Shown: positions 1 to 40,385 of the stretch, one piece after another
Position numbering within the stretch: position 1 is the stretch's first letter
Layout: each line of letters starts with the position of its first letter
Source of the DNA: Amphiscolops sp. MND2022
Lineage: Eukaryota
Direction of reading: 5' to 3'
NCBI GenBank assembly: GCA_964187785.1
Contig: OZ076409.1
Location: 25,980,001-26,044,000 of the forward strand
DNA: 64,000 bases
The notes under the pieces: model-generated
What the model saw: only the letters and a program-made list of their open reading frames with translations
Databases searched by the model: none
What the model was told of the DNA's origin: nothing
Program-made: the position numbers and the translations under genes

Positions 1-1169
1 TGTTGAGAGTAACAGATTATATTGACAAAGACAACATTTTTGACGAAGAATATTCTGCGGCTTTTTATGACTCAACATGGTTGACAATTTTTGAACTATC
101 AATTCTTTATTTTTATGATTTGGCACGATTAACAGGAAAAATGACGGAAATTCACGGAGCACACCATGTCAACTTCACGTTCTTTCATGTTCTAAGTGGA
201 GATGTTTTGTACTTCCCGTAACTTTACGCAGATTTTTTTAAACAATTATTGTATGAAACTATAAATAACTGAAGTAGTAACTTTCCGACCACTTCGCCTA
301 GTAGCTATTATGTGATGCCTGGAAGCGGGAGCCGTATCTTCGATTCCCACAGACTGTTTTCATGTTTGCAAAGCTAGATAACAACACAGGGTGAACCCTT
401 TAGATTTGTTTGAGCTCTGCGACTTTTTTTGAATTTTAGAGCAAGAGTCCTCGTTTGTTTTTTTTCTCATTTTCTCGAGGAACAAAAAGTTTCAACTTTT
501 CTGCCTGAAACTGCAAGTTGATGCAGGAAAACGGAAAGCACTTTAGATTTACGTAGCCTACTATGATGATGATAAAAATTTCTTGAAGATTGTTTTTGAG
601 CATATTTGAAAAGTTTTGTATTTATTGAACCTTCGCTGAATAGTGCCGTTCCCACTTGTTTCGAACTTAACTTAATACCAAATTATTAAAGTTTTTCCCG
701 ATTAGGCTTTGACAAAGAGAAGATAGCTGAAATAATTTCCAAATTGTCAGTTTGGAACTCTATTGCATGATTTTTGAAGAGGTATTTTTTTAGTTAGGAC
801 AATTTCTTTGTTCGAGAAGCCACTATTTGCTGGCCATGATTCACATGTATGATGAAATATAAAAGCACAGTTAAAAAATTAAAGATAATTATAAAATAAA
901 ACACAGTTTTATTCTGAAAAAGACTTTCTGAACCAAACGTTTACTTTTTTCATATCGGCAAAGAGAATGAAACCATTGGAAGAGTGGGCAATTTTGTGAA
1001 ATGAGGTATATCCGAGGCAGTAGGATATGAAAAGGGGTTCATCGACATTTCAGGCAGATTTCTATGAAGATTAGAAAACAATCATTCTGCATCAAAAATT
1101 CTAAACAAATTTTCATCTTATCGGTTTGTTATGCTTTCAGAAACGAGAACAGACGTAGGGGCTTGGGAC

Positions 1170-1715
1170 GTGGGCACAAACTACGATCTAAGGAATAAGA
1201 TCGAAACGCACTTCTGTAACTAAGATCTAAAGAACTAAGATCTAAATGTCATTTTTCGTAACTAAGATCTAGAGAATGCCAGCTCCCGAATCGTACCGAA
1301 AGTCTAAATTTCAGACGTTATTCCCGTTTTAATTTCCGTTATTCCCATTTTTTAGATGTTACGGTAAAGTATAAAATGCTTTAAAGTATAAAACGTGCCT
1401 CAGATATGTCCCAATTTCCTCTAGTGCCCTGCGGCCCCTTGGGGCCGCTTATGTTCCCATCTTGCTAAGCGAGGTCGAACAGGAGCAAAGACCTAGCGGG
1501 AACGGAGATCGCGAAGCGATCGTAGTGGGAGCTGGTCTTTGCGACGGTGAGGGCGAGCGTGCATACACCGTATATGACCCCACATTATTCCTTAGACGTT
1601 ATTTTAATTCAATTTAGACCTTAGTTACGGTGCATGCTTTTTAGATCTTAGTTCTTTAGATCTTAGTTACGAAATTTCTTTAGATCTTATTCCTTAGACC
1701 TTAGTTGCGGTCCCC
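1170..1715 (+). mobile_element. Foldback/MULE-like MITE, arm family A (TAAGATCTA repeats), copy 1, carrying the conserved core
   Basis: Imperfect TIRs gtgggcacaaactacgatctaaggaataagatc / gatcttattccttagaccttagttgcggtcccc; 9-bp TSD gcttgggac at 1161-1169 and 1716-1724. Confidence 0.8.
1421..1585 (+). repeat. Conserved ~165-bp GC-rich structured core, candidate ncRNA; other copies at 3535-3698, 4586-4749, 6657-6821, 7762-7925, 8671-8833 and a half copy at 1976
   Basis: Near-identical ctagtgccccgcggccccttggggccgc...gcatatgccccacat set inside different arm families; several stems; upstream TATAAAA. Confidence 0.85.
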
Positions 1716-2390
1716 GCTTGGGACGTGGGCACAAACTACGATCTAAGGAATAAGATCGAAACGCACTTCTGTAACTAAGATCTAAAGAACTAAGATCTAA
1801 ATGTCATTTTTCGTAACTAAGATCTAGAGAATGCCAGCTCCCGAATCGTACCGAAAGTCTAAATTTCAGACGTTATTCCCGTTTTAATTTCCGTTATTCC
1901 CATTTTTTAGATGTTACGGTAAAGTATAAAATGCTTTAAAGTATAAAACGTGCCTCAGATATGTCCCAATTTCCTCTAGTGCCCTGCGGCCCCAAGGGGC
2001 CGCGGGGCACTAGACGAAATGGGGACATATCCGAGGCACGATATATGTAATATATTTTTTTTCCGTAATTTTTCGATCTTATTCCATTCGATCTTATTCC
2101 ATTCGATCTTAGGCGATGAACGATTTCATTCGATCTTATTCCGTTCGATCTTATTCCATTTTCGTATTTTCGATCTTATTCTTTCGATCTTATTCCGTTC
2201 TCCTAGCAGGAATAACGTCTAAGGAACAACGTCTAAGGAATAACGTCTAAAGCCAAGTCATGCTCAGTCATGCTTATTCCCAATCTTAATACATTGGATT
2301 TTAGACGTTATTCCTTTAGACGTTATTCCCGAAACACTTTTAGACGTTATTCTTTAGACGTTATTCGCGCCCCTAAGGGGAGCGGAATAA

Positions 2391-3189
2391 ATGGGCTACA
2401 TCAGGGCTGCCCAAAAATTAATTGATTGAAAATTAATTGCAATTAATTGCTAGAAATTAATTGATTGCTAGAATTTGCAATTAAAATTAATTAATTTTTT
2501 CGTTCCAATTAATTGCAATTAATTGGTGTAATACATGTATTTCATGCATTTGCAACTTGCAAGTGAATCTGCTGCATATTCATTCGGTGATTTCCGTCAA
2601 AGTCTGCTACCAATGAATTTGGAGATGCAACTTTTCCTAAAGATGAATAAAAGATTTTGGGACGAACAAATTCTTGCATCAATTGTTGCTTGAATTCATT
2701 ATTGTGATTAATAGTTTTGTTGTTACTTAATAGAGTAGAGATACAATTAACTGCAATTAATTGCAGTTAATTAATTTTTCAGAAGAGCAATTAAAATTAA
2801 TTGATTTTCATTGTTGAAGTGGCAGCAATTAATTGCAATTAATTTTTGGGCACCCCTGGGCTACATCATGGCCTCTGCCGAAAAGAAAACTGTTATGGAC
2901 CCCAAGATGATGAACACCCCTGTACTTGTGATGAATGCGGAGAAAACTGTGAGAATCCCAATCATTTGGAAGACTGCTCTGGGCTTAATTCATCAGATAC
3001 CCTCAAAAAACTGCGGCTAATCTACGATAAAATAGAACCCAGGAAAATACCAACCGATTAATTTCATTTTAGTTTAAATAGTTTACGCTCAATGCATACT
3101 GTATATTTATGCACGTGCTTTATGTTATTTTATGTTCTTCCTACAAGTTGTCTTTATAAAGACGTGAATTCAATTGTTCTGTTCTGTTC
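2391..3189 (+). mobile_element. 5'-truncated non-LTR retrotransposon 3' end (Cys/His C-terminal domain plus 3' UTR), interrupted by the hAT MITE
   Basis: 15-bp TSD aggggagcggaataa at 2376-2390 and 3190-3204; ORF ...HHGLCRKENCYG...CTCDECGENC...NHLEDC; tail ataaagacgtgaatt..(gttct)n. Confidence 0.72.
2402..2858. mobile_element. hAT-type MITE
   Basis: TIRs cagggctgcccaaaaattaattg / caattaatttttgggcacccctg; perfect 8-bp TSD ggctacat at 2394-2401 and 2859-2866; internal AATTAATTG repeats. Confidence 0.88.
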
Positions 3190-3887
3190 AGGGGAGCGGA
3201 ATAATATGTGGGCACAAACTAGGGGAAACGGAAATCGGACTGAGGAAATTGAACTAATGGAATTAGGACTAACATGCTCAAAATTTCTGAAACGTTCATG
3301 TGAAATAGAACTAATTTCGTATTTTTTCAAACAGGAATTTGATCTAATTTGTTACGGGAATTGGAACTAAAAACAGGAATTAGAACTAATTTGTTACGGA
3401 AATTGGAACTAAAAAAGTGGGAATAAGACCTAAAATGCTGAATGAGACCCAAGGGGAGAACGGAATAGTATCTAAAGAAATAATATCTAAAGTTTTTCAA
3501 AGTATAAAAGGTGCCTTTGAAATTTTCCTTTCCTCTAGTGCCCCGCGGCCCCTTGGGGCCGCTTATGTTCCCATCTTGCTAAGCGAGGTCGAACAGTAGC
3601 AAAGACCTAGCGGGAACGGAGATCGCGAAGCGATCGTAGTGGGAGCTGATCTTTGCGACGGTGAGGGCGAACGTGCATACACAGCATATGCCCCACATTG
3701 AAATTTCGCTTTCAGAAAGTCCACATGTATTGAATTTCCCTTTTTGTTTGTTTTGATGGTCCAGTAAATATGTCCTTCGCATTTTAGACCTTAGTTACGG
3801 TGCATTCTTTTTAGATCTTAGTTCTTTAGATCTTAGTTACGAAAATTCTTTAGATCTTATTCCTTAGACCTTAGTTTCGGTCCCCGC

Positions 3888-4230
3888 TTGGGACACCATG
3901 GTTTATGTCAGAGGAAAGGATGTTATGGGGCAAACAGAGACGAGGAGATATGTATATGTGAGCTGTGTAGTCAAAACTGTGGGGATGACAACCATTTAGA
4001 GGAATGCCCAAGCTTAAATGACACAGATTTCTTCAAAAAACTGCGCTATGTTTACGCAAGAACATTATCTATATGACAGTTTACTTTATTTCTTTTTCAA
4101 TACTGTACTTTTTCATTATTGCACGTGTTATATTTTAAATACTTTCTCACCACTTGAAGTACCCAACATTTGTACACTTTATCTTTCAGTTGTCTTATGA
4201 ATAAGACGTGAATTTATCTTATCCTATCCT
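3888..4230 (+). mobile_element. Second 5'-truncated non-LTR retrotransposon 3' end; its first 7 nt lie at 1163-1169
   Basis: 15-bp TSD aacagacgtaggggc at 1148-1162 and 4231-4245; ORF GHHGLCQRKGCYG...CICELCSQNC...NHLEECP; tail ataagacgtgaatt..(atcct)n. Confidence 0.72.
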
Positions 4231-4238
4231 AACAGACG

Positions 4239-5186
4239 TAGGGGCGGGAATAACGTCTAAGGATTAACGTCTAAAGGAATAACGTCTAAATTTTACTCAT
4301 TTTTCGGGAATAACGTCTAAAGATTTAGACGTTATTCCCATTTTTTTAGATGTTATTCCCGATTTTGAAATATTGTTTCTTGTGCTGAAAAGTTCTTCCC
4401 TTGGTCTAGTTTTCAGGTAATAACGTACAAAATCCAGAAAAAACGCCCAAAATATCCGAAAGTCATCGAAATACGACTGAGAAACAGGAAAAACAAATTA
4501 AATTGGAAAAAATAAATCGTTTCAGATCTAAAATTAAAAAGTGATATATAATATAAAACGTGCTTCGGATATGTCCCCATTCCTTCTAGTGCCCCGCGGC
4601 CCCTTGGGGCCGCTTATGTTCCCATCTTGCTAAGCGAGGTCGAACAGGAGTAAAGACCTAGCGGGAACGGAGATCGCGAAGCGATCGTAGTGGGAGCTGG
4701 TCTTTGCGACGGTGAGGGCGAGCGTGCATACACCGCATATGCCCCACATTTTGATTTTTCGCTTTCAGAAAGCCTTTTTCGAAACAGGAATAACGTATAG
4801 AACTTTAGACGCTAGTCTCAAAAAATGATTTATTTTAGACGTTATTCCCGTTTTATATTTAGATGTTATTCCCCAGACGTTCTTCCCGCTGCCACGTATT
4901 TTGATGATTTTTTTGCTATTTTAGACGTTTTTGCCAATCTTAGACGTTATTACCGTTTTCAAACGTATTTTGATCGTTTTTTGACATTTTAGGCGTATGT
5001 CGTTTTTAGACGTTATTCCTCTTTTTAGACGTTATTCCGCTTTTTAGACGTTATTCCACTTTTTAGACGTTATTCCCGTTTTTTTAGACGTTATTCCCGT
5101 TCATTTCAGATTTAGATGTTATTCCTTTAGACGTTATTCCCGGTGGACTTTTAGACGTTATTCCTTAGACGTTATTCCTGTTCCCC
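4239..5186 (+). mobile_element. Foldback/MULE-like MITE, arm family B (TAGACGTTATTCC repeats), copy 1, carrying the core
   Basis: Left arm (GGAATAACGTCTAA)n, right arm (TTAGACGTTATTCC)n; 9-bp TSD gaacagacg at 1147-1155 and 5187-5195. Confidence 0.8.
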
Positions 5187-5209
5187 GAACAGACGTAGGG
5201 GCGGGAATA

Positions 5210-7286
5210 GGGGAAACGGACCCATATCAAACATACCTGTCCATATCAAACTGATCGATATGTCCAAAGCATTTGACAATGTATGTCGAACCTCGCTCAA
5301 AGAAATGTGCAAATGTATTATGGATGACACCAGTTTCACTCTCTTAGAGCTCCTACTCGACCGCATTGATGTAAAAGTGCGAGTTGGAAACCATCACAGC
5401 AAAATTTTTACGACGAATAAAGGCGTGCCTCAAGGGGATGCTCTCAGTCCCATACTGTTCATTTTATACCTGTCGAACACACTAGCAGGAGTCTTCATAG
5501 CCCCAGAAGAGCGAGATCATGACTACGGAAACCCAGGGATTCGGTTCTCAGATGACCCCTCTTTGTCAGTGATCACTCTCCAATATGCTGATGATATCGC
5601 ATATATCGACCGAGACCTTGAAAAACTAAACCAAAAAATGTATAAGGACTCAAAAAATCTTGCACGAGCTGGCTTGACCGTTAATCACAGCAAAACAGAA
5701 GTTAGAACCTTCGTTTCAGGGCAACTGAGACCTCCCAACCTCAAATATTTAGGCTCCCACATCGACACAGACGAAGACATCACGAATCGACAGCGATTAA
5801 CATGGGCTGCAATGGCAAAATTGAGACAAATACGAAAAAATGCAGACATACCAACGCTGGAGACAATTTGGAAATCGCTATTAGAACCTATTTTTCTCTA
5901 TAACAGCGAATTATGGTCACTGACCAAAACCAGAGAGAAAAAAGTCGATGTCATGCAACGAAAGTTCATTAGAATACTCCTGTCAATAAAGCTGATAGAC
6001 AAAATCAAGAATGAGGAATTGTACAGACGATTAAATACAGAGCCATGGTCGTCAGCCATCCAAAAACGACGGCTGAGATTCTTTGGGCACATAACTAGAC
6101 TCTCATCTGAAACCCCAGTTCGAAGATGTCTCCACCAAACATCAACCAGATGGGGCAAATCAAAGGGAGCAGCCCGACTGACATGGAAGAAACTTATTAC
6201 AACCGATTTGGCGCCATATGATATCAACCCAGATGACCAGACAACATGGGAGTCGCTGAGGAAGAGAAATGTAAACTTCTGATCTGATTGAATGAACAAT
6301 GCCCTCGGGCGTATATGTTAATTAGATGATGATGATGATGAGGGGAAACGGAAATCGGACTAAAGAAATTGAACTAATGGAATTAGGACTAACATGCTCA
6401 AAATTTCTGAAACCTTCATGTGAAATAGAACTAATTTCGTATTTTCTCAAACAGGAATTAGAACTAATTTGTTACGGGAATTGGAACTAAAACAGGAATT
6501 AGAACTAATTTGTTACGGGAATTGGAACTAAAAAAAGTGGGAATAAGACCTAAAATGCGGAATGAGACCCAAGGGGAGAACGGAATAGTATCTAAAGGAA
6601 TAATATCTAAAATTTTTCAAAGTATAAAACGTGCCTCTGATATTTCCTCATTTCCTCTAGTGCCCCGCGGCCCCTTGGGGCCGCTTATGTTACCATCTTG
6701 CTAAGCGAGGTCGAACAGGAGCAAAGACCTAGCGGGAACGGAGATCGCGAAGCGATCGTAGTGGGAGCTGGTCTTCGCGACGGTGAGGGCGAGCGTGCAT
6801 ACACCGAATATGCCCCCACATTAGAAGGGGAAAGTACTGAAAATTTTGTGAGTCATTTACGAAACATAAAATTTTATTCTTCAATAAAATGATTTGAGAT
6901 CTGACTATTTTATAAAATCAATGGAAGGAGAAAAATAATGATTGTATCAATTTTTTATTGATCAATTGTATTACGTTACTTTTGTACTACTTTCATTGTA
7001 CTACCACAAAATTTGAATTTTGTACCATGTTTTTATCCGCTTCTGCGTTTTTTTTGTTGTACCTTTTTTTATGTTGGATGTTTACAATTGAACATGTCGT
7101 GATTTTGTCAATTCGATCTACGTAATTGCAAATTTTCCGTGCCAAAAGTTGTTTTAGTCCTATTTCAATCAGTCCTATTTCCATTAGTTCTAAGGCGGCA
7201 CTAAAAAAGAATTAGTCCTATTTCCATTAGTCCTATTTCAGTTGTGATTATTAGTCCTCCTTCATTAGTCCGAATTCCTGTCTCCC
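5210..7286 (+). mobile_element. Foldback/MULE-like MITE, arm family C (GAACTAA/GGACTAA repeats), carrying the core and interrupted by an RTE LINE
   Basis: TIRs ggggaaacggaaatcggactaa / ttagtccgaattcctgtctccc; 9-bp TSD gcgggaata (5201-5209) / gcggtaata (7287-7295). Confidence 0.8.
5221..6340 (+). mobile_element. 5'-truncated RTE-clade LINE; RT C-terminal half with an open 340-aa frame at 5260-6282
   Basis: DMSKAFD, GVPQGDALSPILF, QYADD, KYLGS, RRLRFFGHITR; (GAT)n tail; TSD aggggaaacgga at 5209-5220 and 6341-6352. Confidence 0.9.
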
Positions 7287-8399
7287 GCGGTAATAACGTC
7301 TAAGGAATAACGTCTAAAGGAATAACGTCTAAATTTTACTCATTTTTCAGGAATAACGTCTAAAGATTTAGACGTTATTCCCGTTTTTTTAGATGTTATT
7401 CCCGATTTTGAAATATTGTTTCTCGTGCTGAAAAGCTCTTCCCTTGCTCTAGTTTTCAGGAATGAACTATGTAACAATCGAAAGCCACGGAATACGAGCA
7501 AAAGTCTATGTGTCTGATGGGTATTTGTACCTAAATCGACAAACAGGCCAAAATATTTAAAAAAAACTATGTAAAAACGTCCGAAAAAAAGGAATAACGT
7601 ATAAAATCCAGAAAAAACGCCCAAAATATCCGAAAGTCATCGAAATACGACTGAGAAACGGGAAAAACAAATTAAATTGGGAAAAAAAGAAATCGTTTAA
7701 GATCTAAAACTAGAAAGTGATATTAAATATAAAACGTGCCTCGGATTTGTCCCCATTCCTTCTAGTGCCCCGCGGCCCCTTGGGGCCGCTTATGTTCCCA
7801 TCTTGCTAAGCGAGGTCGAACAGGAGCAAAGACCTAGCGGGAACGGAGATCGCGAAGCGATCGTAGTGGGAGCTGGTCTTTGCGACGGTGAGGGCGAGCG
7901 TGCATACACCGCATATGCCCCACATTTTGATATTTTCGCTTTCAGAAAGCCTTTTTCGAAACAGGAATAACGTCTAAAACTTTAGACGCTAGTCTCAAAA
8001 AATGATTTATTTTAGACGTTATTCCCGTTTTGTATTTAGATGTTATTCCACAGACGTTCTTCCCGCTGCCACGTATTTTGATGATTTTTTGACATTTTAG
8101 ACGTTTTTGCCAATTTTAGACGTTATTCCCGTTTTTCAGACGTATTTTGATCGTTTTTTGACATTTTAAACGTGTGTCAGTTTTAGACGTTATTCCTCTT
8201 TTTAGACGTTATTCCGCTTTTTAGACGTTATTCCACTTTTTAGACGTTATTCCCGTTTTTTTAGACGTTATTCCCGTTCATTTCAGATTTAGATGTTATT
8301 CCTTTAGACGTTATTCCCGGTGGACTTTTAGACGTTATTCCTTAGACGTTATTCCTGCTCCCCGAACAGACGATGGGAACGGAATGGGAGAGGGGAATG

Positions 8400-9140
8400 G
8401 CGAAACGGAAATCGGACTAAAGAAATAGAACTAATAGAATTAGGACTAACATGCTCAAAATTTCTGAAACGTTCATGTGAAATAGAACTAATTTCGTATA
8501 TTCTCAAACAGGAATTAGAACTAATTTGTTACGGGAATTGGAACTAAAAAAGTGGGAATAAGACCTAAAATGCGGAATGAGACCCAAGGGAGAACGGACT
8601 AGTATCTGAAGGAATAATATCTAATGTTTTTCAAGGTATAAAACGTGCCTCTGATATTTCCCCATTTCCTTTAGTGCCCCTTGGGGCCGCTTATGTTCTC
8701 ATCTTGGTAAGCGAGGTCGAACAGGAGCAAAGACATAGCAGGAACGAAGATCGCGAATGAGATAGCGATCGTAGTGGGAGCTTGTCTTTGCGACGGTGAG
8801 GGCGAGCGTGCATACACCATATATGCTTCACAATAGGTGGGGAAAGTACTGAAAAATTTTGTAAGACCTTTACGAAAGTTTTATTTTCTTCTCAAATAAA
8901 ATGATTTGGGCTCTGACGATTTTATAAATTATAGAAATCAATAATTGAGAAGTTTGTAATTGAATGTTTATTTGTGTGGATTACCTCAATTCCATCAGCT
9001 TGAGATTTGTTTCTGAAGATTTGGTAATAAATTCTGGCTTCTAACGTTCCCTGGAAAACGATTTTTTAGGTCTTGTTCAACTAGTTTTTGATTTTAGGTC
9101 TTATTCCTTTTGAAACTTTAGGTCTTATTCCCGGTTACCG
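8400..9140 (+). mobile_element. Diverged family-C left arm, core, and a different right arm (TAGGTCTTATTCC repeats)
   Basis: Homologous to 6343-6920 on the left and centre; right end differs; boundaries approximate. Confidence 0.65.
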
Positions 9141-9421
9141 GACGATGCGAGCTGGAAGGGAGAACGTTGTAAAATATAATTCCCAGAATCTAATTCATTA
9201 AGATTTTAAAAAATAACACTCAACGCTCAAAAAAGGACGTAGATCTTAGGAATTAGATAAGATCTAAATAATAATATCTAAAACTGGGGAGTAGGAAAAA
9301 CGTCTGAAGGAGTAACGTCTAAAATTCAATGTAAAAAGATTGGGAATAAGCATGATTGAGCCTTGGCTTTAGACGTTATTCCTGCTCCATCTGTCATGCT
9401 TATTCTCCAATCCTAATACAT

Positions 9422-9568
9422 CTTGTTACTGGTCTACTGGTATAGTGGCTGGTATGGGGTTCCCTACTTTCGTTGCAGACCACGGGTGTGTGTCTTCTCC
9501 CCCCAAAATGATGATACACATGGCACTTGATTGATGACGAAGATCCATGATATCTGATAGAGGAAAAA
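9422..9568 (+). mobile_element. Short A-tailed retroposed insertion in a family-B mini element
   Basis: TSD aatacat at 9415-9421 and 9569-9575; the empty site taatacattggatt is seen at ~2288. Confidence 0.6.
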
Positions 9569-9792
9569 AATACATTGGATTTTAGACGTTATTCCCGAAA
9601 CACTTAAAGACGTTATTCCTTAGACGTTATTCGCTCCCTAAAAATTTTTGACTTCGAAAAGGGGAATAAGATCCAAAATTGACTTTAAAAAAGATCCAAA
9701 CTTGCAAAATTGAAAAAAAAACATGATCAGTTCTCAAAATCTATATTAATTAAAGTTCAGTTGAGTGTGATTTCAAGAATTAGACGTCATTC

Positions 9793-10470
9793 TTTTTAGT
9801 CGGCGTTTTCGAAGAAAATGCACGACTCTTACTGTGGTTAGTTTTTTTCCTCAGTTCAACGCGATCAGTCCACTTTTTCTGTTCATTTGTTCAACTCCTT
9901 CGCCAACTAATTTTCACACTTTCAGAAGCAGGAGAGCGGGGTTCGAGTCTCGCACTGAACCACAAGTTTTTTAATGTTTCCAAAAGTAATGGGTAGACGA
10001 AAGGGTCCCCTTTGGTTTTTTTCGGCACTATGCGACTTTTTTTCTGAAAGTTTTTGTAACATTCTATCTCACTTGGACTCATTCCATGTCACGATCGGAA
10101 TGCTGAAAGCAAAGTCCAAGTGAGATAGAATGTTACAGTTTTTGAATTCTATCAAAGGGTACCCCCTTGATTTTTTTGAAGTTGTCGGTTTTTAAAAAAG
10201 GTTTAATGTGCCTAAAGGGTCCCTTTTTGGGGTTTTTTGGCATTATGCGACTTTTTTCACCAAATACTTTTTTAAAAAAATTTAATTTTTCTCAAAAGCA
10301 AATTAGTTTTTTTTCTAGTGCAGAAAAAAACTTTTCGAGTTTCGGGGAAAACCCTTTCGGGATTTTTCGGCACTGTATGATAAATGAAAAATTTCACAAT
10401 AGGCTGAATTTTTCCTTGAATATTTTTGAGCCTTAGATATGACGCCGATTTGGGCCGTTCCCGGCCTGTT
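9793..10470 (-). mobile_element. Helentron/DINE-1-like non-autonomous element
   Basis: Reverse complement of the AACAAG..GGGAACGGCC..AGTCGGCG start and AGTCG..CGCCGACTAAAAA palindromic end shared with other copies. Confidence 0.65.
10055..10137. mobile_element. 83-bp mini-element with 25-bp perfect TGT..ACA TIRs
   Basis: tgtaacattctatctcacttggact / agtccaagtgagatagaatgttaca; 5-bp TSD gtttt. Confidence 0.75.
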
Positions 10471-12232
10471 ATTTCTAGATCATTCCCGATTTTAGACGTT
10501 AATCCCGTCTTACTAACAATGAAGTTTCGAGTCTCTTCGAGCCCAAATAGCATTATAAAGAGTGGATTCAGGAATAGTGAATAGTGTAAACAAGAAGTTT
10601 GAGCCCAAGACAGTAACAAATGTGAAATTGATCCGGTCCATTCAAATGTTTCAAAGGTTATACTAGTTGCCAAGACGGTTGTGAGAGCCGTAGGCCAGAT
10701 CATTACTTCTTCCTAAGATTACTAAACAAGGACAGAGATTACAACTCAATACTGTTTTTTTTTCAAGTGAACCTCAAAAAGATCGGTAAGGTTTATCTCG
10801 AAGCCTCAAAGAAGCAATTTCATGAAAATACGTCCTGTTCAAGGACGTGAAATATAAAGCTGGAACAGATATAGTTTTGTGAAAAACCATAATGACATTT
10901 ACTGTGTTTATTTTGTATTGGAGCAGATGGGCTGCAAATGTCTATATAAATATACAGTCGAGTTAGATCATATTGCCGATTGAATTCTAGATTTTTTAAA
11001 TACTAATCCTTAGACACAGATCGTCGTCAAAAAATCTCGTACTACGTTGGTGATCATAAAAGGAGGAGATGGAACTCACAGGTGGTCTGTAAAACGAGGG
11101 GAAGCATTCACGGAAAATGTCAATCGAAAGACTAAATACTCATGCTAGCCACTATCCCAGTAGACCGACTGAGCTAAAATAACTAAAAATCCAGAATATC
11201 TATCGCGAAAAATGATGTTGCCAGTTGCAGCCAAGAAAAATACTAAAACTCTCCGTCGCTCACTGTTGCATTACCAACCTAAAAAGTTATTGGAGCTATG
11301 TTGCGTCAAGAACCTACCGGCTCGCTGCCCGTCGCGCAAACGACAGAGTTTTTTACGAAGACGTGTTATGAAAATTTAGCTACTTTCTGTCAAATTTTGT
11401 GATTCAGGTTTTCAGCTTGGGAAATACTTGGGGTTTCATGCACCCTTTTCAAGTGAACGACGCCTGAATTGAACAAGTATCTGGTTTGTAAGTTGTACTA
11501 GGGAGGTACAAGGAGGGACAGTGTTCACTGAAGGGCACTCAACACACCTTATTCACAAAGGCTGCGAGTCTCCGTTAGAGTTGAATTGGCGCATTTTGTA
11601 TGGACCCATCATTTTCATAGGTTACAATTGACCCAGTTTTAAGACGGAAGGCTCGAGACACTTAGGAGCGTTACACCTTTTACTGTTTTTTTATGAATAA
11701 TTTACCACTTTCAGGAGTAGCACATTTAGTTGTGAGACAAACTCCTCTTACTGGAACAAAACCACAAAACACTTCAATACCTTTGGTTTAAAAAGGTTTG
11801 GATGTTTTGTATTCAATTGGATAAAAACGGAATGAAACAGAGTCAGAGATATGGCAAATAGTTTTAACATCTCAAACTACCAATTCATCGCCGTATCTGA
11901 AGATATTCAACAAGCCGGTCTCAATAGTCATGCTAAAGTCTTCAATTACTTTTCCTGGTCCCTGAGGAATAACCTTTCGAAACCCTGTTTTTGGGCGTTA
12001 GTCGTCAGTACAAGCTGCAAGGAAAAGAATCTAAATTGTAAATTGTAAACTATAAATATAAAATGGTTATCACTTACATTTAATTCCCTTCTTGTGGAAT
12101 AATATTCTCATTTCAGTTTTAAATGGAATCACCGAAAAGTTTCAACATCTGTAGTTTGTCATGTCCTGAAGTGTCCTGAATCTGCCCAACAGGCTTGCTT
12201 GTGTGTGTTAGACGGTGTTGGGTGTTTTTATC

Positions 12233-12344
12233 ATGGCCATTTATGCCAAAGATGCGTCCAACGAGAACACACCTGTTCACACCTCCCACAGGTCCGTCCA
12301 GAGAGGCGACTCAGTCCAAGCCAAGGAGGGCAACCTGCTTAGCA
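12233..12344 (+). CDS. MOK: MOK putative first coding exon (MAIYAKDASNEN...GNLLS)
   Basis: ATG-initiated open frame ending at a strong GTGAGT donor in phase 1, matching the phase of the 13014 acceptor; no homology support. Confidence 0.55.
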
Positions 12345-15300
12345 GTGAGTGAAACAAATCAAACTTAAAGTCGTTTCTTAGTGTACTCAGAAATGTCAAC
12401 TGCTATCAGCATTGCGGAAAATTTCTGAAACCTGATGTCAACCTTCAATTTTCTATGCTTTCATAGTACTGGGTTATTACTAATTTTTAGTGGTAAGATG
12501 TACCATTCTGAGATTTTTCACGATTTCGAGTTTGTAGATAGAGGTGTAGTTTGTCCCATTAAGTTTACGAACTAAAATGACAGCTTTTTCGTACAGTCGG
12601 ACCTCTCTTTAACGCACATCTCGGGGAGTATCTCATTGATTACGTTAAAAAGAGTATACGTTGTTTCGAACACTTGTTTGTGTATTTGCTTTTGATTGGT
12701 TTAGAAATCAAATCGCTGTATTATGAGAAATACGTTGTTGCGATGGATGGCTCGTTATAGTGAGCTCCGACTGTACTTACCTTTTTACTGTTTCTCCGAT
12801 TTAATTAACAACAGTCCTTGCTTACCCGCATTACCTTCTGTAGAGTAGTCTGTTGTATTTTTTTTGAGGTAAAAAGGGAATAAAGGGGTGTGAAATCTAA
12901 ATTTAGTTCTAAAAAAACTAAACTCAAATGATGACTCTTTTAGGGGCTGATTTTGTTACCATCCGCACTGCTGAGTAATGGGCTCTATAAGGTTCTTTCT
13001 CTAACTGCCTTAGAGTACATGGTGATTTCGAAGAAAGGAGAAGGCACATTCTCAGAGGTGTTGGAATGTCGGAATCGAAACACTGACGAATCTGTCGCAG
13101 TCAAAAAACTGAAACAGAGATACGACAGGTTAGAAGCTGTCCAGGATTTTGGAACCGAATTTTAAATGAAACGGGTACTCAGTCATTTTAACATAAGTAT
13201 CAATTTATCATGGAGAGCAATTTTTGTTTGATACAAATAAACCTTCAGCGACTTCAATTAGTTTTTACTCAACTATTTTCTTGTTAAAACTGTCGACAGT
13301 TTTAACAAGAAAATAGTTGAGTAAAAACTAATTGAAGTCGCTGAAGGTTTATTTGTATCAAACAAAAATTGCTCTCCATGATAAATTGATACTTATGTTA
13401 AAATGACTGAGTACCCGTTTCATAACATGATCATAACATTCGACTATTTCACTATATTTTCCACCCACTGTTTTATCTACCTATCTATTGTACTGTATGA
13501 ATCGAACACCGATTGGTCAATAATCTGAGCAATAAATATAAGCTGTTCTTTAAACCGAATGGTTCAACTGGTAATTCAAATCAGTGGTTAAGTTGGACAT
13601 GACTGTTGTAAAGGACATCATTTGTTTGAAACACTTTTAACGCCTCTTCGATCATCAGATTTCAGAATCTTTTCTCTTTCCAGCATGTACCAATGCAACA
13701 AAATTCGAGAAGTACAAGCAATGCGAAAGCTCTCCAGCCATGCCAACATCGTGAAGCTGCGTGAAATGATTTAGTGAGTTGTCACTTTTTCAAAACTAAT
13801 CTTTTCCATTATCCAATAAAATATTATGTTTATCATCCCCTGAATATTTGTTCACTCGGGCTGTTTGTTTTCAGCGAACCCACTTCATGCACCCTGTACC
13901 TGATCCTTGAATTAATGGACATGAATCTCTATGAACTAATTCGAGGTAATTTTAGCCTATTTTTGCTCGCAATACTTTATACCTTGATATTAATCTTGCC
14001 GTCTTTTATAAGGTTTTTAAAAACCGTTTTTTTCATATGCCGATCCTTAGCTTGATTCTTGAATGAAACGAGCATTTTTGCCCAGGTTTGTAGATCATTA
14101 AGCTTGTTAAAAGATTCCAAGACAGTGAAAATTAGGCAAAATTCAAAACAGTGAGTGGCTTGTATTTGACGTACTATTTATTTGTATCAGAATTACACTC
14201 GATAATCCGTTACAAAGTTTTTCAAAATAAAATAACACGTTCTAATATAACGTTAACGGTATGGCTTGATCTTCGGACCAAATCCTTTCAAAAAAAGCTC
14301 AATCATTTTGAAACTGTTACTGAACTTTAGTAAATGTCCTAGTCTTATCGAACTCATGGTTGGATAATATTGCAGCAATAATGAAGGAAAACAAAAAATC
14401 AGGTATTTATGTAGAGAACTCTCTCAAAGCATTCATCCCATAGTTGACTTCATTCCTTTCACACTTTTCATAACATGTATTTGTGTGTCTCGTTGACCTT
14501 TCGTGTTCTTAGCTTGCTGAAACTTCGTGTTAAACTATCCTTGAAATGTCTCGTCATCGATGAGTCACCTTTGATCGATTACTGCAATTCCCTTTAGTGG
14601 GTCCTCTATGTCTTTAAACGAAGTGCCAAACAAACGACGCACCTAGAAGTTTGATATCCTTTTTCCAAATCTGAAAGTTTCCCATTGATGGCCATAAGAA
14701 GATGCCATCGAATTCCATGCCTTTTGATGCTAGAATGGGGTCTAATTACGAGTCATTTAAATTGTAGGCACCGACAACGAAATTGCCTACAATTAAATTA
14801 AAACCCTACTAAACTGTTAAGAATAATTTGGCCGCAAAGGGACTCCTAAACAGAACATCGTGGATGGAGGGTTCATGAATTGAGTTCCAATACTCACGTA
14901 TGGGCTAGTCTGTGGGCCAAGTTGAAATTCTCCATTTCACAGTCTCGCTCTACTAAAAAGTACAGTGACTTGTGTAACACTTTTTTGTCTCATTTGAAAA
15001 ATACATCCGATGAAAGGAAGAAAACGCTTCAGGTATCAAGTTGGAAAAAATGAAAATCTGAACTTTAAAAACATTTGATTTTTGGTAACTTTTACTTTCT
15101 ATTTAGGCTTGAATTAATAACTAATGGACTATACACAATGAATGCTAATAAATGGCACCAAGTCCTAATTTCATTTTTTGTGTCACTGTGATACTAATTA
15201 CACCAGATGCTGATACCAAAAGATTGGGATTTCGCTGATTTAGGCTCATATCATTTATGCAAGCTATGCAAAACATTGTTTCCGTATCTGGTTTTCGAAA

Positions 15301-18300
15301 ACTTCGTGATACCAAAATGGTAACTTTTTCGATCAACTTACCAGACAGACTCCAAAAAAAAACAAATTTCAGTATATCAAAAAATTTGTATCTTTGGTCA
15401 AATTACCAGATGGTCAATGGTCAAAATATGTTGGTCTAAAAATACCCTAACAGTCGGACAGGTTGATGCTGCGAGACGCTTTAATATTGACCTTGAAATT
15501 TAAAACCAGCCCGAAGTTTCCAATCCAATGAATGTCATCTTGATTGTCGCTTTTCTCTGTAGTTGTCATGGTTTGCTAGTTTGTTGTCAATGACTTTCTA
15601 TCATGCTGCTTCATTTTCCCCAATTTGACCCTAGTTTTTCAATCATCTGCGACTTTTTCAGGAATTATTAGTATAGCATTCAATTGTTATTTCCACCTGA
15701 ATAACAAAATTGTTCATAATATGCAACTTTTTGCTTATAGCCCGGAAAACTTGAAGTCTCATTAAAGAGAATCTTTGCCGACTTTTTTCACCAATCTTGT
15801 ATTCATAGAGACGCATCCAAGTAACAATATGTGAGATTTAACTTTCGAAGTAAATTTCAAAAAGCATGATTCGCGTGCTTTGATTATTTAATAAATGTCC
15901 ACATACGAACTGTCATGATTGTGAATTTTACAGGTAAACGGAATTATCTCCCAGAGAGCAGAATTCGCTTTTACATGTTGCAATTGGTCGATGCAGTTCG
16001 TCACATGCACAAGTAAGTTGTCTATTCTTGTGCCATACCTTGGGTTAAACTCAGTCATTCAACTAACTAATTCAACAGATGCTAATGGCAATCCAGACTT
16101 TGCTCAGTTACATACACCAGGGTACCGAAAAGCTGGAGACATAGCCGTTCAGTCGTTACAAGGCGAGAAATTCGATACTAAATCAACGAGCACTGAAAAC
16201 ATAGGCCAGGTTTGTCATTAAAGCAAACAGACTCTTTGACTCGAGATCTTGTCGAACTTTTTCAATTTAAAAATCTTCAACCCTTTGCTAACTTATGTGC
16301 AAAGCAAATCTAAGAAGCATACAAACATTGCTAAGCTTCAAAGAAACGCAAATATGAGCAACGCATCACAAATATCAAAAAAGCTCTTTCAAGCCTCTCT
16401 GCTTTGCGACTACAGGAGCCGGTGCCTCCGCAACAAAAATCACCACAATACTTGCGCACAATCTCAGAGAAAAAACCTCGAAGCCATACGCCTGTGTTGT
16501 AAGATACATAAGGTTTAAGATTAGTGTTTTAATTCTGAGGAGTTCGTATCTGTGTATTAGAGGATGTAGATTTCTGAAACGCTAGGTCACTCAGACCGAG
16601 TCCTCTATGAGCGCAATTGTCGGAGGTGAGGCTCTCAATAAATTGACGACGAGCAACATAGTCACGATACTTTAGTTTCAGACGAGCATTTACTTTGCGA
16701 TTCGGTGTTTTATTTTATAAATTAGTACTCTGTTTAACAAGGTTTCCCAATTTATCTTTACGGGACAGTCACTGGCGTTTTGAGGAGGCTCTGCAGCTTG
16801 CAGCGTAACCACACCATCCACGTCTGTTTGCTAGCAAGCCCCCTTTAACACAGGCTACATATTTAAATATCCCTTTTTGTTTCTTCGATGCGCATGGTCT
16901 TTATAAAATTAGGAAAAAGTCAGATTTTTACATATTCAATCGACACAAATGTCGCAGAGGCAAAGTTTTCTTGAATTTTCATCAGAATCGGAGGGCTATT
17001 TTTTGTTTTGAAATCGAAGAAAAACTGCAAACTTTTGACTCCAACACTTTTTCTGAAAACGTCGCCCTCAAAAAAATAGAGAGCAAATGATCACAAAACG
17101 CGAACACTCAAATTTTTACTCCGTAAAAATAATGTTTCAATGGAATTTCAACTGTTTTTGGCTGTTCCTTTTTCAAGAAAGCATTTTGAGAAAAACATTT
17201 TTTTATATATAAAAGGTAAATAACGGTGTCGAGTCTACAAAAGTGGCCGGATGGTTTTTCTTCCGACTAATTGTCTTTGTAATGAGGTTTTAAAAAGTTC
17301 AAAGTTCCCCGAAAGGCCATTTACCTTTTCAAATTTGCATTCGATTGCGAAACAAAAAAACACCATTGTAATTCTGATTAAAATTTGAGTGACTTTTTGC
17401 TTCTGAAACCTGTTTGTAACGAACAATTTCGTCTGCCAAATCGGGTGTCTTTAGCTTTTTGGTACCTTAGTATGCATGGAACCTTGATATTAGCGCAATT
17501 CTTTTCATGAGACTATATGGTTCCATGCATCAGAAAAACATGGTTTGAAACCACGACATGCAATACCATTATCTTATGGTTTTGAATGCATCATGATGAA
17601 CATTGACTGATCCTGATTTTTTCTGACTTTTCTCCCAATCTGAAATCTTTCACGTTAGCTGTTTGAGGCAATTTCCCCGGGCACTTGGAAGTGGTAATTT
17701 AATAGCTGCTAGATGTGTATCTCTGATGTTTCAAGTTTCGGAAATCTTTAGAAAAGTTACCTTGATATTACAGGAAAGGTAAAGAAGGTAAGCGATTTGA
17801 TATCTATGTGTTTTCATCATCTCGTTGCAGCATCATATCTTGCCGTTAAAGAGACATGGAGTGTGAAATTTAGAAAAAAAATGGGAAGAAAGGGGGCCTA
17901 ACTTTGTTCGAGACACATCACGAATTATTTTTAAAAATTACGATGTTAACTAAGATGGAGATTATTGTAAAATGTGCCACCGTTTTCAATTATGATGCTG
18001 ACACACCGAAGGTTTTTTCTAATACTTTCCACCGATTGGAATCTAAAAATATTTCAGTCTTTGGAAAACCACAAAAAAAAATCAGCGAGTTGCTAAATTT
18101 TGCTACCTTTCGAGTTTTGTAGAGACATTGTGATATGGCGATTTATAGAAGAGGCACAATGAAAATGAATTCGAGATTGTAAAGGGGGATTATATTTATT
18201 TATCTGTCTACTTTTAAAAGAAATCTTTTTGACGTGTTGTTTGATCAAAGAGTCATTTTGTCGCGCCAACTCCTTTCATTTTGTCGCTTTAGTCGTTACC

Positions 18301-21300
18301 AAATATGGAATTATCCCTATAGCTTGCAAATATATGTTGCATGTATCATCTCACTCGTAGGAAATCATCATCATCGCGTTTTGCTTTTTTCTCAATGGTT
18401 TTTCTCGCACTGGATCATTTTGTAAAATTTTAACAAGCCGGGAACGGCCAAAGTCGGCGCTATATCTAAGGCTCAAAAAGTGCAACATTTTCAAAATATG
18501 CTCATGACGTTTTTTATGAAAAACTCACTAAAAAGATTCACCCAAAGGAAGCCTTCCGTGCTGGGAAAACGCTTCAGAAGTTCGGATATAGCGGCTGGGA
18601 CAAATGCGAGCACTTGTTTTCGAACCTCCGCCTCCTCCTCAGCAAAACGGAATATACTTCGGAAATAACGTCAAAAATTCGGATATAGCGCTTTACTCCG
18701 GATATTACGTTCAAATTTCGGATAGTATTTAAAAAAATATTGGTGGATATGTATTGAGAAAACCTAATGTCCGATGAAAAATGACAATTTTGAACAGTCT
18801 CATAGTGCCGAAAAATCTGAAAGGGGGACCCTTTGGGATTTTCAAACATCTATTATGTTCTAAAATATCAAAAAATTGAAGGGGGGACCCTTTGGTACAA
18901 TCAAAAACTTTTCGAAACAAGTCTCATAGTGCCGAAAAAAATCCAAGTTAAAAACACCCAGATAGCCAAAGTGGGGATCCTTAGTTGTTTTCGAGGTTCT
19001 GGACGTCGGTTTTATAATTTTGGACGAGGTTCTGGGGTTTGCGGTATGTTTTGGTCAAGTTGAGCAAATGAACAAAAAAGTGGACCTTACGCGAGTAAAA
19101 AAACTACACAGTGTAAGAGTCGGGCACATTTTCTACTAAAATGCGCCGACTAAAAACAGTCAAATATTAATTCATTGAATCTGAGAATGAATTACCAGCA
19201 ATAGTTTTGGAAAAATTATTGTGTTCAGTTCACGTAGCCAAGTTTCTCGAACGCTTTTTCATTCTAAGAAAGTATTATCATAATTAAATCCATTTTTCAT
19301 TGCTTCTATTCTTATGAACGTTTCGACATCACTTTTTTAATTTTGAAATTAACGGTTTGCAAACAATTGACCGCCAAATCGTCGTTTTCGAAATCGCCCC
19401 CAAGATGAAAAACCTTTTCTGTAAACTACTGAAGTAAATTTAAAAATTGATTTCTATGAGAATTTCTTGAATTTTGTGAGTTTTTGAAATTTTTAGTATT
19501 GACTTCTTGAACAGAGGAGCCACCATGGATTTGTGAATTTTTGTTTGCCCTTGATAGTAATCGGTTAAGACATCGCTAAATTAATAGTTTTAAGCCGCTG
19601 TATGGCTGAACAAGCCGAGAACGGCCAAAGTCGGCGCTATATCTAAGGCTCAAAATTGAAAAGGGGGACCCTTCGGGCTTTGTGAAACTCCAGCTGGCTG
19701 CAAAAAATGAAAAAAAAATTGAAGGGGGACCCTTTGGGGACATGGAAAAATTTCCAAAAAATTTTTCAATGAGATTTTTTAACAGTGTCACAGTGCCAAA
19801 AATTGTAAAACGGGGGACCCTTTGGGATTTTTTGACATCCTTTGTGTTGCAAAATGTCGAAACAAATGAAGGGGGGACACTTTGGTGCAATCCAAAAAGT
19901 TTCAAAAAAGTCGCATAGCGCCGAAAAAAGTGGGGCTATGGGGGGATCCTTAGTGTGATTTCGAGGTTCTGGACGTCTGTGTTGTTTCTTCTTTTCGTTT
20001 TGGACCCGCTTTTGAGGTTCGAGTTGTTGAGGTTCGAAGTTGTTGAGGTTTGACATTGTTGAACAAATGAACAAAAAAGTGGACCTTATGCGTCTAAAAA
20101 AACTACCCACTGTAAGAGTCGGGCACATTTTCTACTGAAATGCGCCGACTAAAAACGGCGTCGAATCTTAAGTTGTGGCTCATTTGTTCCTGTAAAACAG
20201 TTCAATATTCATTTTGTGTTTACCATATTCTTCACGCATGAAAAGAAAATGAGTGATTTTGAATGCTTCGTTATTTTTGTGATTGAATGCGCAGTTTGAT
20301 TTGAACGTGAATGTGTAATGGTTTGAGTTTCCTGAAACCTGTTTCATCTCACCCTGTCATCGCTTGGATGCACCCTTGTTTCATTCAGCTTACTTTTGTG
20401 TTCATTTGATTTTTGTCATTCTTCGAAAGGAAGCCGCTTTAAGACATCACAAGAAAACAATAAAACCTATTCAATACCCAGTTTGATAACTCTTGAATTT
20501 TTCGATAAGAATCTTGCAAGAAAGATCTTCCATTGAAAGATTTTCCACGACTCCTGCCAAAAACTAAAGATTTTTCAAGATTTTGCCAATAGTTTCAAGA
20601 GAAAATTTATCAGAAGTGAGTAGAAATTAAACAAGACGGGAACGTCTACAGTCGGTGCTATATCTCGCAGTTTTTAAAATATGCGTAGGACGTTTTCATG
20701 AAAACTTCTTGTTTCCGAACCTCCGCCTCCTCCTTAGTAAAAAAACAAAATAGTTCGGATATAACGTCAAGAATTCGGATACAGCCGTTCTCGCTCCCAA
20801 CGAAGCTATCACGTCCTGAATTTCAATATTTTGTGTTATGCTATAACCAGGGATGGGCAACTTTCTTACACAATTTTCACCGGTTTCTCTCGGGAACAAT
20901 TATTGAGAACCATATGGCAAACTCGCATGGCCTGAGATCAACGTTAAAAATATAGAATATCAATCTAACATTCGTTGTAACGATGTTACTGTTGAATTTT
21001 ACCGGATAATGTTGGCATTGAAGCCTCAAACGCTCGTTTTTTCAATGTTTTTTACGCAATTTGTAACTCAACTTCGGCCTAATTATCATACACCTTTTGC
21101 TCTTCTCTGTCTATAACGAATAGTTCAAAGAATGACAGTGTAAACAATAAGGTTTGTTTTGCAAATTATTCATTTCTCGGGACTCTTGAAAGAATTTTTC
21201 TTAACAAGATTCCTTGTAAAAATTCAAGAGGTTTGTGTGAAACAAGAACAAACAAGATCTCATTAAATCTTCCAACAGGATACGGAAATACAAGAATTTC

Positions 21301-24300
21301 AAGATGTTTTGCACTGGGTAAGCAGGATTATATTAGTTTTTATTTTGCCACATGTTATCGTTATTACAGTGTATGACGTTGAAAATTTACCACACGACAT
21401 CCAAATTTGTTTCCCAAGATCGGCGTCTTTCATAATACCGCGTGTTTTCACGATTCCAATGGGCTAACTCCTGAAATTAGACAAATCGAAATTAACAATA
21501 GAGACTTTCAAGGTTAGCATATGCTATTATCAGGCTTTACTAAAAATGTAGGAAAAAATGAAAATGCTGCCTCGCATAGCCACCAAGGTCCTTGAAGCAC
21601 TAGCGACGGTACGGTGGTAGCCTTTCGTATAACCGAACGAGCTTAAGGAAAAATGAATATAAAGCCGATCCCAAATCCTATTGGACAAGGAAATAAGCAA
21701 ACTATCACCTTAATTTTCAATTACTCTGACCGGTTACATAATAGGGTGCCCTTGTAAGTTCGCCATATATAAGTTAGCCCGTAAAACTTAGCCACGTTCA
21801 AGTTAGCCACCATATAAGTTCGCCACGTTTATTTTCTCTATATTTAAGCCAATGGAAATTGAATGCGAACTGAAGTGGCTAACTTAAATGTGACTAAGTT
21901 TTACGGGCTAACGTATATGCGGCAAACTTAAATGGACACGACATAATAGTTTTATCATTCAAAGCTCACTGTCGAACGGAGTGACCAATTACAATTGAAA
22001 ACTCGATTTGGTTCCGCTATGAATTTATTCTGCATTATTACCATTCGGATATAGAACCACCTGGTCTATGGAGGTATTACTAAACTTGAATTTCAAATGG
22101 TAATTTTTGACTGTTGTTTTGCAAATTATCAACGTTCGTTAAGTTACTGTCCTTGTACAAAAAGGTTGTATTCGAAAAGTTTTCTTCATAATTTAAAAAA
22201 AATGACGATAATCTATAAAATAAAAATCAAAAGTTTTCCCGATATTTCTAATGGGGTGTAAGACGCATTCGTATGTTTGATGGAATTTGGCTCCTAGCTG
22301 AAAATACACCGATGTGATTCGGAGAATTATGGGAGGTAATAATATTTTAGAATATTGGAATATTTTATTGATTTAGGGTGCGGTTTAGAATATTTTTGCA
22401 TTTTTAATTGATCTGATTATGTCTCAATAAGCACATTTATGCAACTAAAGCAGTTAACATTTACATCATTAAACCATATTATCTGCCTAAGTAAAAAAAG
22501 CAATGCAGTCATTATCAGTCGTTCAAATTTCTCCCTTCGTTTTTTCTACAGATGATACCGTTAATTCATTAAAAGTTTTGAAATCTGTGTATCAATTTGT
22601 GGTTCTCTTTACTGATTTATCGACATGAAACTTGATGTTTTCGAAACATGAAATGAAATTCTTCGAGCCGTTCATCAAAAGTGAATGGAACTTATAACAG
22701 TTTATAATTTAATAACCATGTAGTTTTTATAAAATGTTTACAGGCATGGAATTTTTCACCGTGACGTGAAGCCAGAAAACATTCTGGTGAAAGGCGACCT
22801 GTTGAAACTGGCAGATTTCGGCTCATGCAGATCGCGAGAATCCAAACAACCTTTCACAGAATACATATCCACTAGATGGTTCGTAAATTTTTAACACCAA
22901 ACTTTAACAAGTTGGAAACAAAAGTCTTTTGATATGGTCAAAACTAACTTTTTCGACACCCACTGCTGTGAAAAGATAAATTCCAGCTGTTTATGAGAGT
23001 TTATAGTCAGTTCAATTTCTATATGTTAACCCCAATGAACCTAGTGATGCTTTAAAGCAGCCTACCTTTTTTTCCAAATTCTAATTCCTTTTGCCAGTAG
23101 CCCATTTTCTCTAGCACAGTTTTTTTTCAACAAGTAATTGGTACCTAGATTGATTTGAATGGCACAAGCATTAGAAAAAGGGAATCCATCTCCAAAGCTG
23201 AGAAAAATGGGTTTTTGGCACAAAAAAAGAGTTATATTTTCTCAAAATTCAGATTTTGACGAAATCCGGTTTTCTCAAAAGTCTTTGATCAATAGAAAAA
23301 ACCAACCACATACCCTTCCACAACAAGTCCTGGTGCAACAAACCCCTATAATATTCTGTTGTTACTACAAGCCCCCGCGCAGCGGGCCGCACGAAGTGCG
23401 GAACTGCCGCGAAGCGGCGGTACCGGAAAAAGAAGCTAAAATTCTGGAGAAAGGGGCGCGCGGCGACAGGAGCTCACCTGAGCAAAATGAAAGCCCAATA
23501 CCAGACCTTTCAAACGCGCTATAGTTTGTTTCTCTGGTGCGCGTAGTTGTGGAGATATTAATTTTTTAAAATTTTTATTCAAATTTTTTGAAAATTTTAA
23601 AAAACGCCCAGGTCGATTGGGGTTAAATTGTTCAAATTTTACAATTACCATATTAGATGGAATTCTATTTGGATTTAAATGGTAATTACCATTTGAAAAC
23701 AGCTTGAAAATATCGCACTGAGAATTTGCGTCTCATTTACCAATGATTGAAGAAGTTTGTGAAATTTGAATTTTTTCTTCGAAAATTTGAGAAAATTAAA
23801 GTTTTTGTGATATGAAGACCACAATTACGGTAACACTGGCTTTTCAGGTACCGTGCTCCAGAATGTTTACTCACAGACGGGTATTATGACTACAAAATGG
23901 ACGTTTGGTCTGTCGGATGTGTCTATTTCGAAATATCAACGTTAGCTATCAATCAATTATGACTCATTCATTTTTGATGTCTTGAATAATGATTTCTTTC
24001 ATGTATGTACTTCCTTTATAGACTGAAACCTCTATTCCCTGGTCAGAACGAAATTGATCAGATCGATAAAATCCACAAACTGTTCGGAACTCCGCCCTCA
24101 GAAGTCTTATCCAAGTTCAAGAGGTCTCGATCCATGAGCTTCAACTTCCCGCCTAGCGTGAGGGACGAACGTACCCTGACCCACCTGGTCGAACCCATGC
24201 CCTCAGACGGGGTTGACCTGCTCTACAAGATGCTGGAGTATGACCCCGCCAAAAGAATCACCATGGAGGAATGTTTACAACACCTGTACTTGAAAAACTT

Positions 24301-37800: not shown

Positions 37801-37829
37801 CAATCAAATTATGAGTCATCTGAATGACA
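31860..37829 (-). mobile_element. BEL/Pao LTR retrotransposon, full-length but frameshifted
   Basis: ~270-bp TG..CA LTRs at 31860-32130 and 37561-37829; PPT ggcgggagtg; gag (KFPKFSG, CFNCLNIGH), protease (LWDSASTVS), RT (CRIVFNAS, GPDLL, GDIRKMYH), Pao RNase H (VFSDASKEAFG), integrase (HSDSGTQLVGA). Confidence 0.93.
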
Positions 37830-39870: not shown

Positions 39871-40385
39871 CAAATATTAGCAAAGTCCGGGTTGGTTGGT
39901 TAAATTTGTGTAGGTCTGAATCTGGCATCTCGTGCACCCTTTGCATCTTCAGATCCTATGCCTGGACCCAAAGACTGTAGTCCCCACGTGTATCTGTGGT
40001 ATCTCTAAAGGTGTTAAATGCTACCTGAATCTGAATATCATTGTTTGACCAGCAAAATCCTGCGTTTATGTCCCTATTTGTTTAAAGAACACGCAGTTTT
40101 TATATTGCAATGTTACTAAAAAAGAGTATCAGGTTCTCTGACTTTGAGGACGTCGCAATGACGGTGGTCTAAAAATAGCAATTGAAAAGCCGCGTGCCTG
40201 GCGTCACATACTTTAGGTGAAGTAAGGTATCAATGCAAATGTCAGTGTAAGCAAATTCGCTTTATATAATTAACTAGTCAACTGCGTACGCACCGTACTT
40301 AGAACGCGTTTCCTTCTAGTAAAATCTAGTGTTAAAAAATCTAGTAAAATATTCAACCTTTTGCGAATCTTGACATGCATACCTG

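Follow-up and report, generated by a model that had tools for sequence, protein, structure and literature searches.

The analysis presented here shows that a 165-nt block carried between the arms of foldback elements is barely changed between subfamilies, while the flanks and arms around it have diverged or been replaced, and that its copies mutate at near-equal rates in stems and loops. The block is constrained in the lineages that multiply and decays after insertion. A paired C-G to A-T change and a loop insertion in copy B3, the most decayed of the six copies in the window (the whole stretch of 64,000 nucleotides analysed), had been read as a mark of selection on secondary structure; they likely arose by chance or by hairpin-templated repair after insertion, in a decaying copy. 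The reading that we favour, with reasonable though not strong confidence, joins this chance or repair origin of the pair with a block selected in cis, within foldbacks that are likely of the Mutator type.

The elements carrying the block are likely non-autonomous, non-coding transposons of the Mutator/Foldback type, as assigned on their arms and target duplications. They are nested, having inserted into each other's left ends, and end-to-end alignments and periodicity reveal long composite inverted arms made of 14-15 bp tandem repeats. Element A1 (1170..1715), which consists of left arm, block and right arm only, is bordered by an exact 9-bp duplication at 1161 and 1716, with a third copy at 3886. 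Element B2 (5210..7286) lies inside the left end of C2, is in turn split by a truncated LINE (about 5220-6340), and has a 9-bp duplication with one mismatch (8/9; 5201 and 7287); both duplications fall within the 8-11 bp of Mutator/Foldback elements. C2 (5198..8363) is thus interrupted by B2, and C1 (4241..5186) has arms of 14-bp GGAATAACGTCTAA repeats; a word of 10-11 bp that recurs at 1148, 4231, 5188 and 8365 borders the C elements. B1 (3222..3885) joins a B-type left arm to an A-type right arm and is likely recombinant, and B3 (8399..9138, right end approximate) has a left arm of B type and no clear target duplication. At the centre of A2 (1975..2014), two left halves meet head to head inside hairpin 1 and the remaining block is absent. 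The window also has small foldbacks that lack the block and have arm repeats of C type, at 2205-2372, 9257-9383 and 9566-9640. No MULE transposase was detected in the 8 ORFs scanned among the 39 window ORFs of at least 100 aa.

The window has a G+C content of about 37%, as in animal-like DNA, and its ORFs include a truncated LINE, Pao/BEL and an integrase. Similar repeats may be present in the acoel Symsagittifera roscoffensis. The genome of that species has 36.7% G+C, as given in an excerpt of its description (PMC9911081). Three LINE-like fragments (1148-4245, 2376-3203 and 5209-6351) lie exactly at left ends of foldbacks, each with an 11-15 bp duplication across a terminal AGGGG, which suggests LINE targeting of foldback ends. 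The stretches 2864-3058 and 3885-4073 are homologous Cys/His-rich C-termini, matching nothing in Pfam and with truncation points only a few bases apart, and the third LINE-like fragment is an RT ORF. Inside the first LINE-like fragment sits an AT-rich element (2402-2858) that ends in CAGGG...CCCTG, contains AATTAATT repeats and is flanked by an 8-bp target duplication (2394 and 2859). Downstream of the nested cluster, an apparent spliced protein kinase gene extends over about 12230-24960, which by eye we take to be MOK/MAK-like; one of its introns holds a perfect 258-bp palindrome (13166-13423), either a real foldback or an assembly artefact. A GC-rich cluster of short hairpins at 23355-23480 has two GAA loops, is unrelated in sequence to the block and looks like the end of another element, and 31853-39872 holds the remains of a Pao/BEL retrotransposon with LTR-like repeats and internal duplications.

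The six block copies all lie on the plus strand: A1 at 1420..1586, B1 at 3534..3699, C1 at 4585..4750, B2 at 6656..6822, C2 at 7761..7926, and B3 at 8670..8834, the start of the last being approximate. C2 equals the majority sequence, and folding predicts in it four plus-strand hairpins (7772-7789, 7793-7822, 7826-7883 and 7888-7923), hairpin 1 being a GC stem with a CTTG loop. As RNA, the plus strand folds with z of -2.6 to -3.6 (-3.1 in C2), below the minus strand in 6/6 copies, and the fold includes G-U pairs and purine-rich internal loops; as DNA, z ranges from -0.7 to -3.1. Ahead of the block on the same strand (7728..7760 in C2) stand a TATA-like word and a pyrimidine-rich stretch, moderately conserved between subfamilies; the word is found upstream of 6/6 window copies and is missing from two contigs assembled from sequencing runs. 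The best match in Rfam 15 scores 12.4 bits (E=1), below the gathering threshold of 50, and none of 20 weak Rfam matches in window 1-12000 overlaps a full block copy. The histone 3' stem-loop gives no match up to E=10 over 7715-7945. Among metagenomes, a loose pattern of the outer stem was run on 8 of 64 parts, and none of the 120 loci compared resembles the block or its region at E<=0.1; viral contigs gave 0 matches to a 19-mer, and prokaryote genomes gave 4 to a 21-mer, all of them 27 nt long or shorter. A sigma-70 promoter scan was set aside as irrelevant to animal DNA.

One reading frame stays open across the block (window 7740-7970), and through it many more copies can be seen in public protein collections. 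The frame search returned 881 protein clusters, of which the best 120 all come from ENA contigs and have no Pfam domain; a second protein library gave 323 matches, 150 of them used, and a B3-specific query gave 12. Amino-acid differences in 274 distinct proteins, none dropped, were back-mapped to bases, yielding 1,282 changes after exclusion of 99 codons without a unique single-base explanation. As a cross-check, a contig of sequencing run X1 with the flank of one protein-defined subfamily bears the allele of that subfamily, G7794A. The minus-strand frame gave 3 proteins only, so third-codon positions are mostly unseen. The 274 proteins are possibly derived from the same assembly as the window; they are score-chosen cluster representatives, and frameshifted copies such as B3 are under-represented among them. 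The block itself was rejected as a protein-coding exon: fixed B-C differences are 0/164 at any codon position, the starts and ends of the ORFs called by gene callers vary between copies, and 51 of the longest block-containing translations have no Pfam match. The spurious clusters that its frame has left in a public collection are a source of false protein families. The translations P0241, P0135 and P0242 each span two oppositely oriented blocks; the orientation of the block is therefore not fixed genome-wide, with all six full window copies on the plus strand.

The conservation of the block stands out most clearly between families. Between the B and C subfamilies, fixed differences are found at 0/164 sites of the block, compared with 8/37 on the upstream side (p=7e-7) and 16/25 downstream, and within the block loops are as invariant as stems. 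Likewise, C1 and C2 differ at 1/166 positions in the block and at 33/775 elsewhere (p=0.02). Among 157 downstream flanks, 8 clusters with at least 4 members were formed, and an unchanged block haplotype is found with several of them; translations indicate that the block also occurs with apparently other arm repeats, and contigs of three samples carry it with unlike flanks. Samples labelled organisms B and C, of related species, contain parts of it, while run X4 yielded no contig, which has no bearing on expression. Alleles reaching at least 10% are present at five sites, of which three are unpaired, one lies at the base of hairpin 2 and one in the weak top of hairpin 4. None falls in the five main stems, which were set apart with the data already known, and no compensation is seen at any of the five sites. 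The inherited allele found most often, G7794A (115/255), disrupts a pair predicted for the plus strand, and its partner is unchanged where visible. Since the sites of heritable variation are five and none is compensated, selection on the sequence and selection on the fold are inseparable here.

Turning to copy B3, its block has 12 substitutions, an 8-nt deletion in hairpin 1 and a 7-nt insertion. What the preliminary description reported of hairpin 3 (8727..8791, plus strand) holds true. The paired change C8735A/G8783T is present, with GCAAAGACA at 8727-8735 and TGTCTTTGC at 8783-8791; the inner stem is unbroken (GATCGC at 8749-8754, GCGATC at 8765-8770), and the GAA loop has grown by 7 nt to GAATGAGATA (8755-8764). 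The copy at 4586 keeps a G-T wobble through C>T at 4651, and the 8-nt deletion has indeed removed half of the 5' hairpin of B3. The copies at 3535 and 6657 were credited with one uncompensated mismatch each; those mismatches exist (3649 and 6776), but three predicted pairs are broken in each copy. B3 has, in addition, two uncompensated breaks that had gone unmentioned, C8707G in the closing pair of hairpin 2 and G8819A in hairpin 4, and three other changes that preserve G-T pairs. The probability of at least one double that restores a Watson-Crick pair is 0.16 for B3 alone and 0.18 across the five window copies compared with C2. Private substitutions of B3 number 11/158 in the block and 8/270 in the left arm, a contrast inflated by the GC-richness of the block, where 30/34 changes are at G or C. 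As for the insertion, the 8 bases with which it opens, when counting begins where the loop does, recur at 8575 in the arm of the same element; a break at the hairpin tip followed by templated repair is plausible, if unproven, as its source. Template switching is able to produce paired changes without selection, according to the portion of the literature cited (PMC8794818). CpG decay was rejected as an origin of paired transitions, the window having a CpG o/e of 0.98, with no depletion.

In the five window copies other than C2 together with the two sequencing-run contigs, 23/34 substitutions hit stem positions, where the null model predicts 23.0 on average; of the stem transitions, 7 leave a wobble and 7 break the pair. 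A second compensatory pair, 7851/7859, is seen in a contig of low depth (2.1), contig 1 of run X1, which has 15 differences, 11 of them inside the block; at least two pair-restoring doubles over seven copies have P = 0.04. The preliminary description had named paired changes no commoner than chance across many copies as what would refute its reading, and within the power of the sample this is the outcome: in the 274 copies, whose changes are mostly private, 4 pair-restoring doubles were observed against 4.1 expected. This test covers 33/52 predicted pairs and more than 7 doubles are needed to exceed its 95th percentile; only an excess of about twofold would show, and stop-making and silent changes are invisible to it. 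Permutation of the pair-restoring doubles gives a mean of 3.6 (P=0.49, 274 copies), sliding the partners by 1-3 bases gives 2-6 of them, and doubles of all kinds number 12 against 13.0 expected. The two B3 changes are found singly, C7834A (B3 8735) in 11/270 copies and G7875T (B3 8783) in 4/271, and jointly in 0/267 scorable copies; neither is present in three copies having B-type downstream flanks. The rate of transitions at G/C is 0.018 for stems, as against 0.020 for loops (p=0.52; 274 copies, 1,282 inferred changes), and transversions are slightly rarer in stems than in loops (0.0078 vs 0.0101, p=0.03; 0.0049 vs 0.0072, p=0.02). Together with the second pair and the lack of common alleles in the five main stems, this transversion deficit hints weakly at a role for structure. 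A scan of allele pairs over 153 alleles has subfamily markers as its top links, with 0 of the top 20 corresponding to a predicted pair, and by inspection the neighbours of the top complementary-looking links form no helix.

With doubles at expectation and the pair absent from the other scorable copies, the B3 pair and loop insertion provide no evidence of selection. The earlier claim that selection acts on secondary structure thus loses these two supports and keeps one part: the block is under selection, as judged from its conservation between subfamilies. The result is a useful negative, since in a repeat copy that is decaying one compensatory change is to be expected by chance.

Other explanations of the pair and of the block deserve to be weighed against this, the foremost being a DNA docking site and homogenisation by conversion. 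The strong form of the earlier view, in which fold selection on individual inserted copies made the B3 pair, can point to a real pair, an insertion placed in a loop, the three B3 changes with G-T pairs, the P value for two pairs in seven copies and the slight stem transversion deficit. It has to face a B3 that lacks half of hairpin 1, has two other pairs broken and has changed more in its block than in its arm, and the missing excess of doubles in 274 copies; such selection is largely refuted, and we hold it to be highly improbable. A block homogenised by hairpin breakage and gene conversion, which also swap arms between families, would call for no selection at all. Rearrangements do end at hairpins, as seen in the A2 junction at hairpin 1, in the B3 deletion and insertion, in a sequencing-run contig that departs from the block at 7852, and in P0278, whose translation indicates that the sequence between the tip of hairpin 3 and hairpin 1 has been deleted; the arms of B1 are unlike, all four allele combinations are present for 9/10 pairs of common sites, and Mutator clades of maize recombine, as stated in the part of the source cited (PMC10401008). 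Against this, block haplotypes follow the downstream flank type (14/25 in one cluster, 8/12 in another), which argues for mostly vertical inheritance, and old copies such as B3 stay unrepaired. We regard homogenisation without selection as unlikely.

A role at the DNA level is doubtful, yet deserves a hearing. Either the transposase or a host protein would use the block, as a place to dock or as an enhancer of transposition, the hairpins being extruded or simply reflecting dyad-symmetric sites, and B3 would still be a decayed copy. The invariance of loops between B and C, which matches that of stems, is in favour, as are a TATG..CCCA-like word present in three direct copies (about 7744, 7791 and 7914) and the fold that the block can adopt as DNA. 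However, near-invariance over 165 nt exceeds what protein sites usually need, the G-T pairs of the plus strand and the internal loops rich in purines are suggestive of RNA, and the window has foldbacks without the block. The tip hairpin, a GNA loop closed by C-G, again favours DNA, being of a type reported as a stable DNA loop (PMC3201870). Finally, the block may be thought of as the captured end of a non-autonomous Helitron, whose minus strand would bring a GC hairpin just before CTAG, and hairpin 1 followed by CTAG is in fact what the minus strand has. A Helitron end consists of a 3' hairpin followed by CTRR, with TC at the 5' end, and insertion takes place between A and T. In the window CTAG is followed by A, not T, in 6/6 copies (B3 having CTAA), about 35 nt past it are common to the subfamilies, and neither a fixed 5' TC at the other end nor an empty site is present; moreover, such an origin alone is insufficient to explain continued conservation. 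A canonical Helitron end was accordingly rejected on the following A and the lack of a fixed 5' TC, and a captured end of this kind is very unlikely.

Under the favoured reading, a chance or repair origin of the B3 pair together with a cis-selected block, selection would act only on lineages still being copied and inserted copies would decay freely. The block would for that reason be an advantage in cis to the element, and it probably helps the elements to spread, acting in cis. How it might do so can be modelled tentatively: once transcribed, either from the TATA-like site ahead of it or through read-through, the block would fold as plus-strand RNA and in that form end or cleave transcripts between the two arms, thereby limiting the fold-back double-stranded RNA that triggers silencing. 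Of the ways in which the block might act, we consider this RNA step the best candidate, and possible rather than probable. It agrees with the plus-strand folding, the G-U pairs, the upstream TATA-like word and the parallel of the Tm1-HH hairpin, and fold-back RNA of long MULE inverted repeats has been tied to siRNA silencing in the section cited of PMC6446971. The uncompensated G7794A, the two contigs missing the TATA-like word and the small foldbacks without the block speak against it. A bolder version, in which several unlike-armed families of animal foldbacks share one 165-nt RNA module of undescribed fold, possibly self-cleaving, that cuts or ends transcripts between the arms, lets the element escape hairpin-RNA silencing and is a functional counterpart of the Tm1-HH hairpin, seems to us quite unlikely. 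Should the block be a signal for RNA processing or against silencing, it would explain the persistence of elements with long inverted arms.

The elements are of a known kind, and their conserved block is a feature apparently undescribed so far, no description of it having been found in the literature searched, which consisted mostly of non-subscription papers, Repbase and Dfam lying outside the search. Non-coding DNA transposons are thought to need their ends only; in the present elements it is the interior that varies least between families with unlike arms. The nearest likeness is with Tm1-HH of root-knot nematodes, which, in the parts cited of PMC3169594, is non-coding and about 0.5-1 kb long, has composite inverted arms in which the number of the repeats, of about 14 bp, varies, makes 9-bp target duplications, inserts in nested fashion and has a conserved hairpin motif between its arms, the function of which its authors left open. 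The motif of Tm1-HH is a 24-nt histone stem-loop, whereas here a block of 165 nt with four hairpins is accompanied by various arm repeats; likewise, Tm1-A encodes a Phantom-type transposase and none was found here (PMC3169594). With the block, the question posed by the Tm1-HH hairpin becomes testable in a second animal lineage. The MULE groups Phantom and Rehavkus also resemble the present elements in their target duplications, of 8-11 bp, and in their long terminal inverted repeats, although MULE membership is defined by the transposase and the elements here are known from their ends and arms alone (PMC6446971, as excerpted). Foldback-like arms occur as well in Galileo, with a P-type transposase (PMC3169594, in the same parts). 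In maize, heteromorphic Mu elements have acquired unlike arms of different clades through recombination, to which B1 may be compared; while maize Mu, as far as the cited portion of PMC10401008 goes, combines conserved arms with diverse interiors, in the elements studied here it is the interior block that is conserved and the arms that differ.
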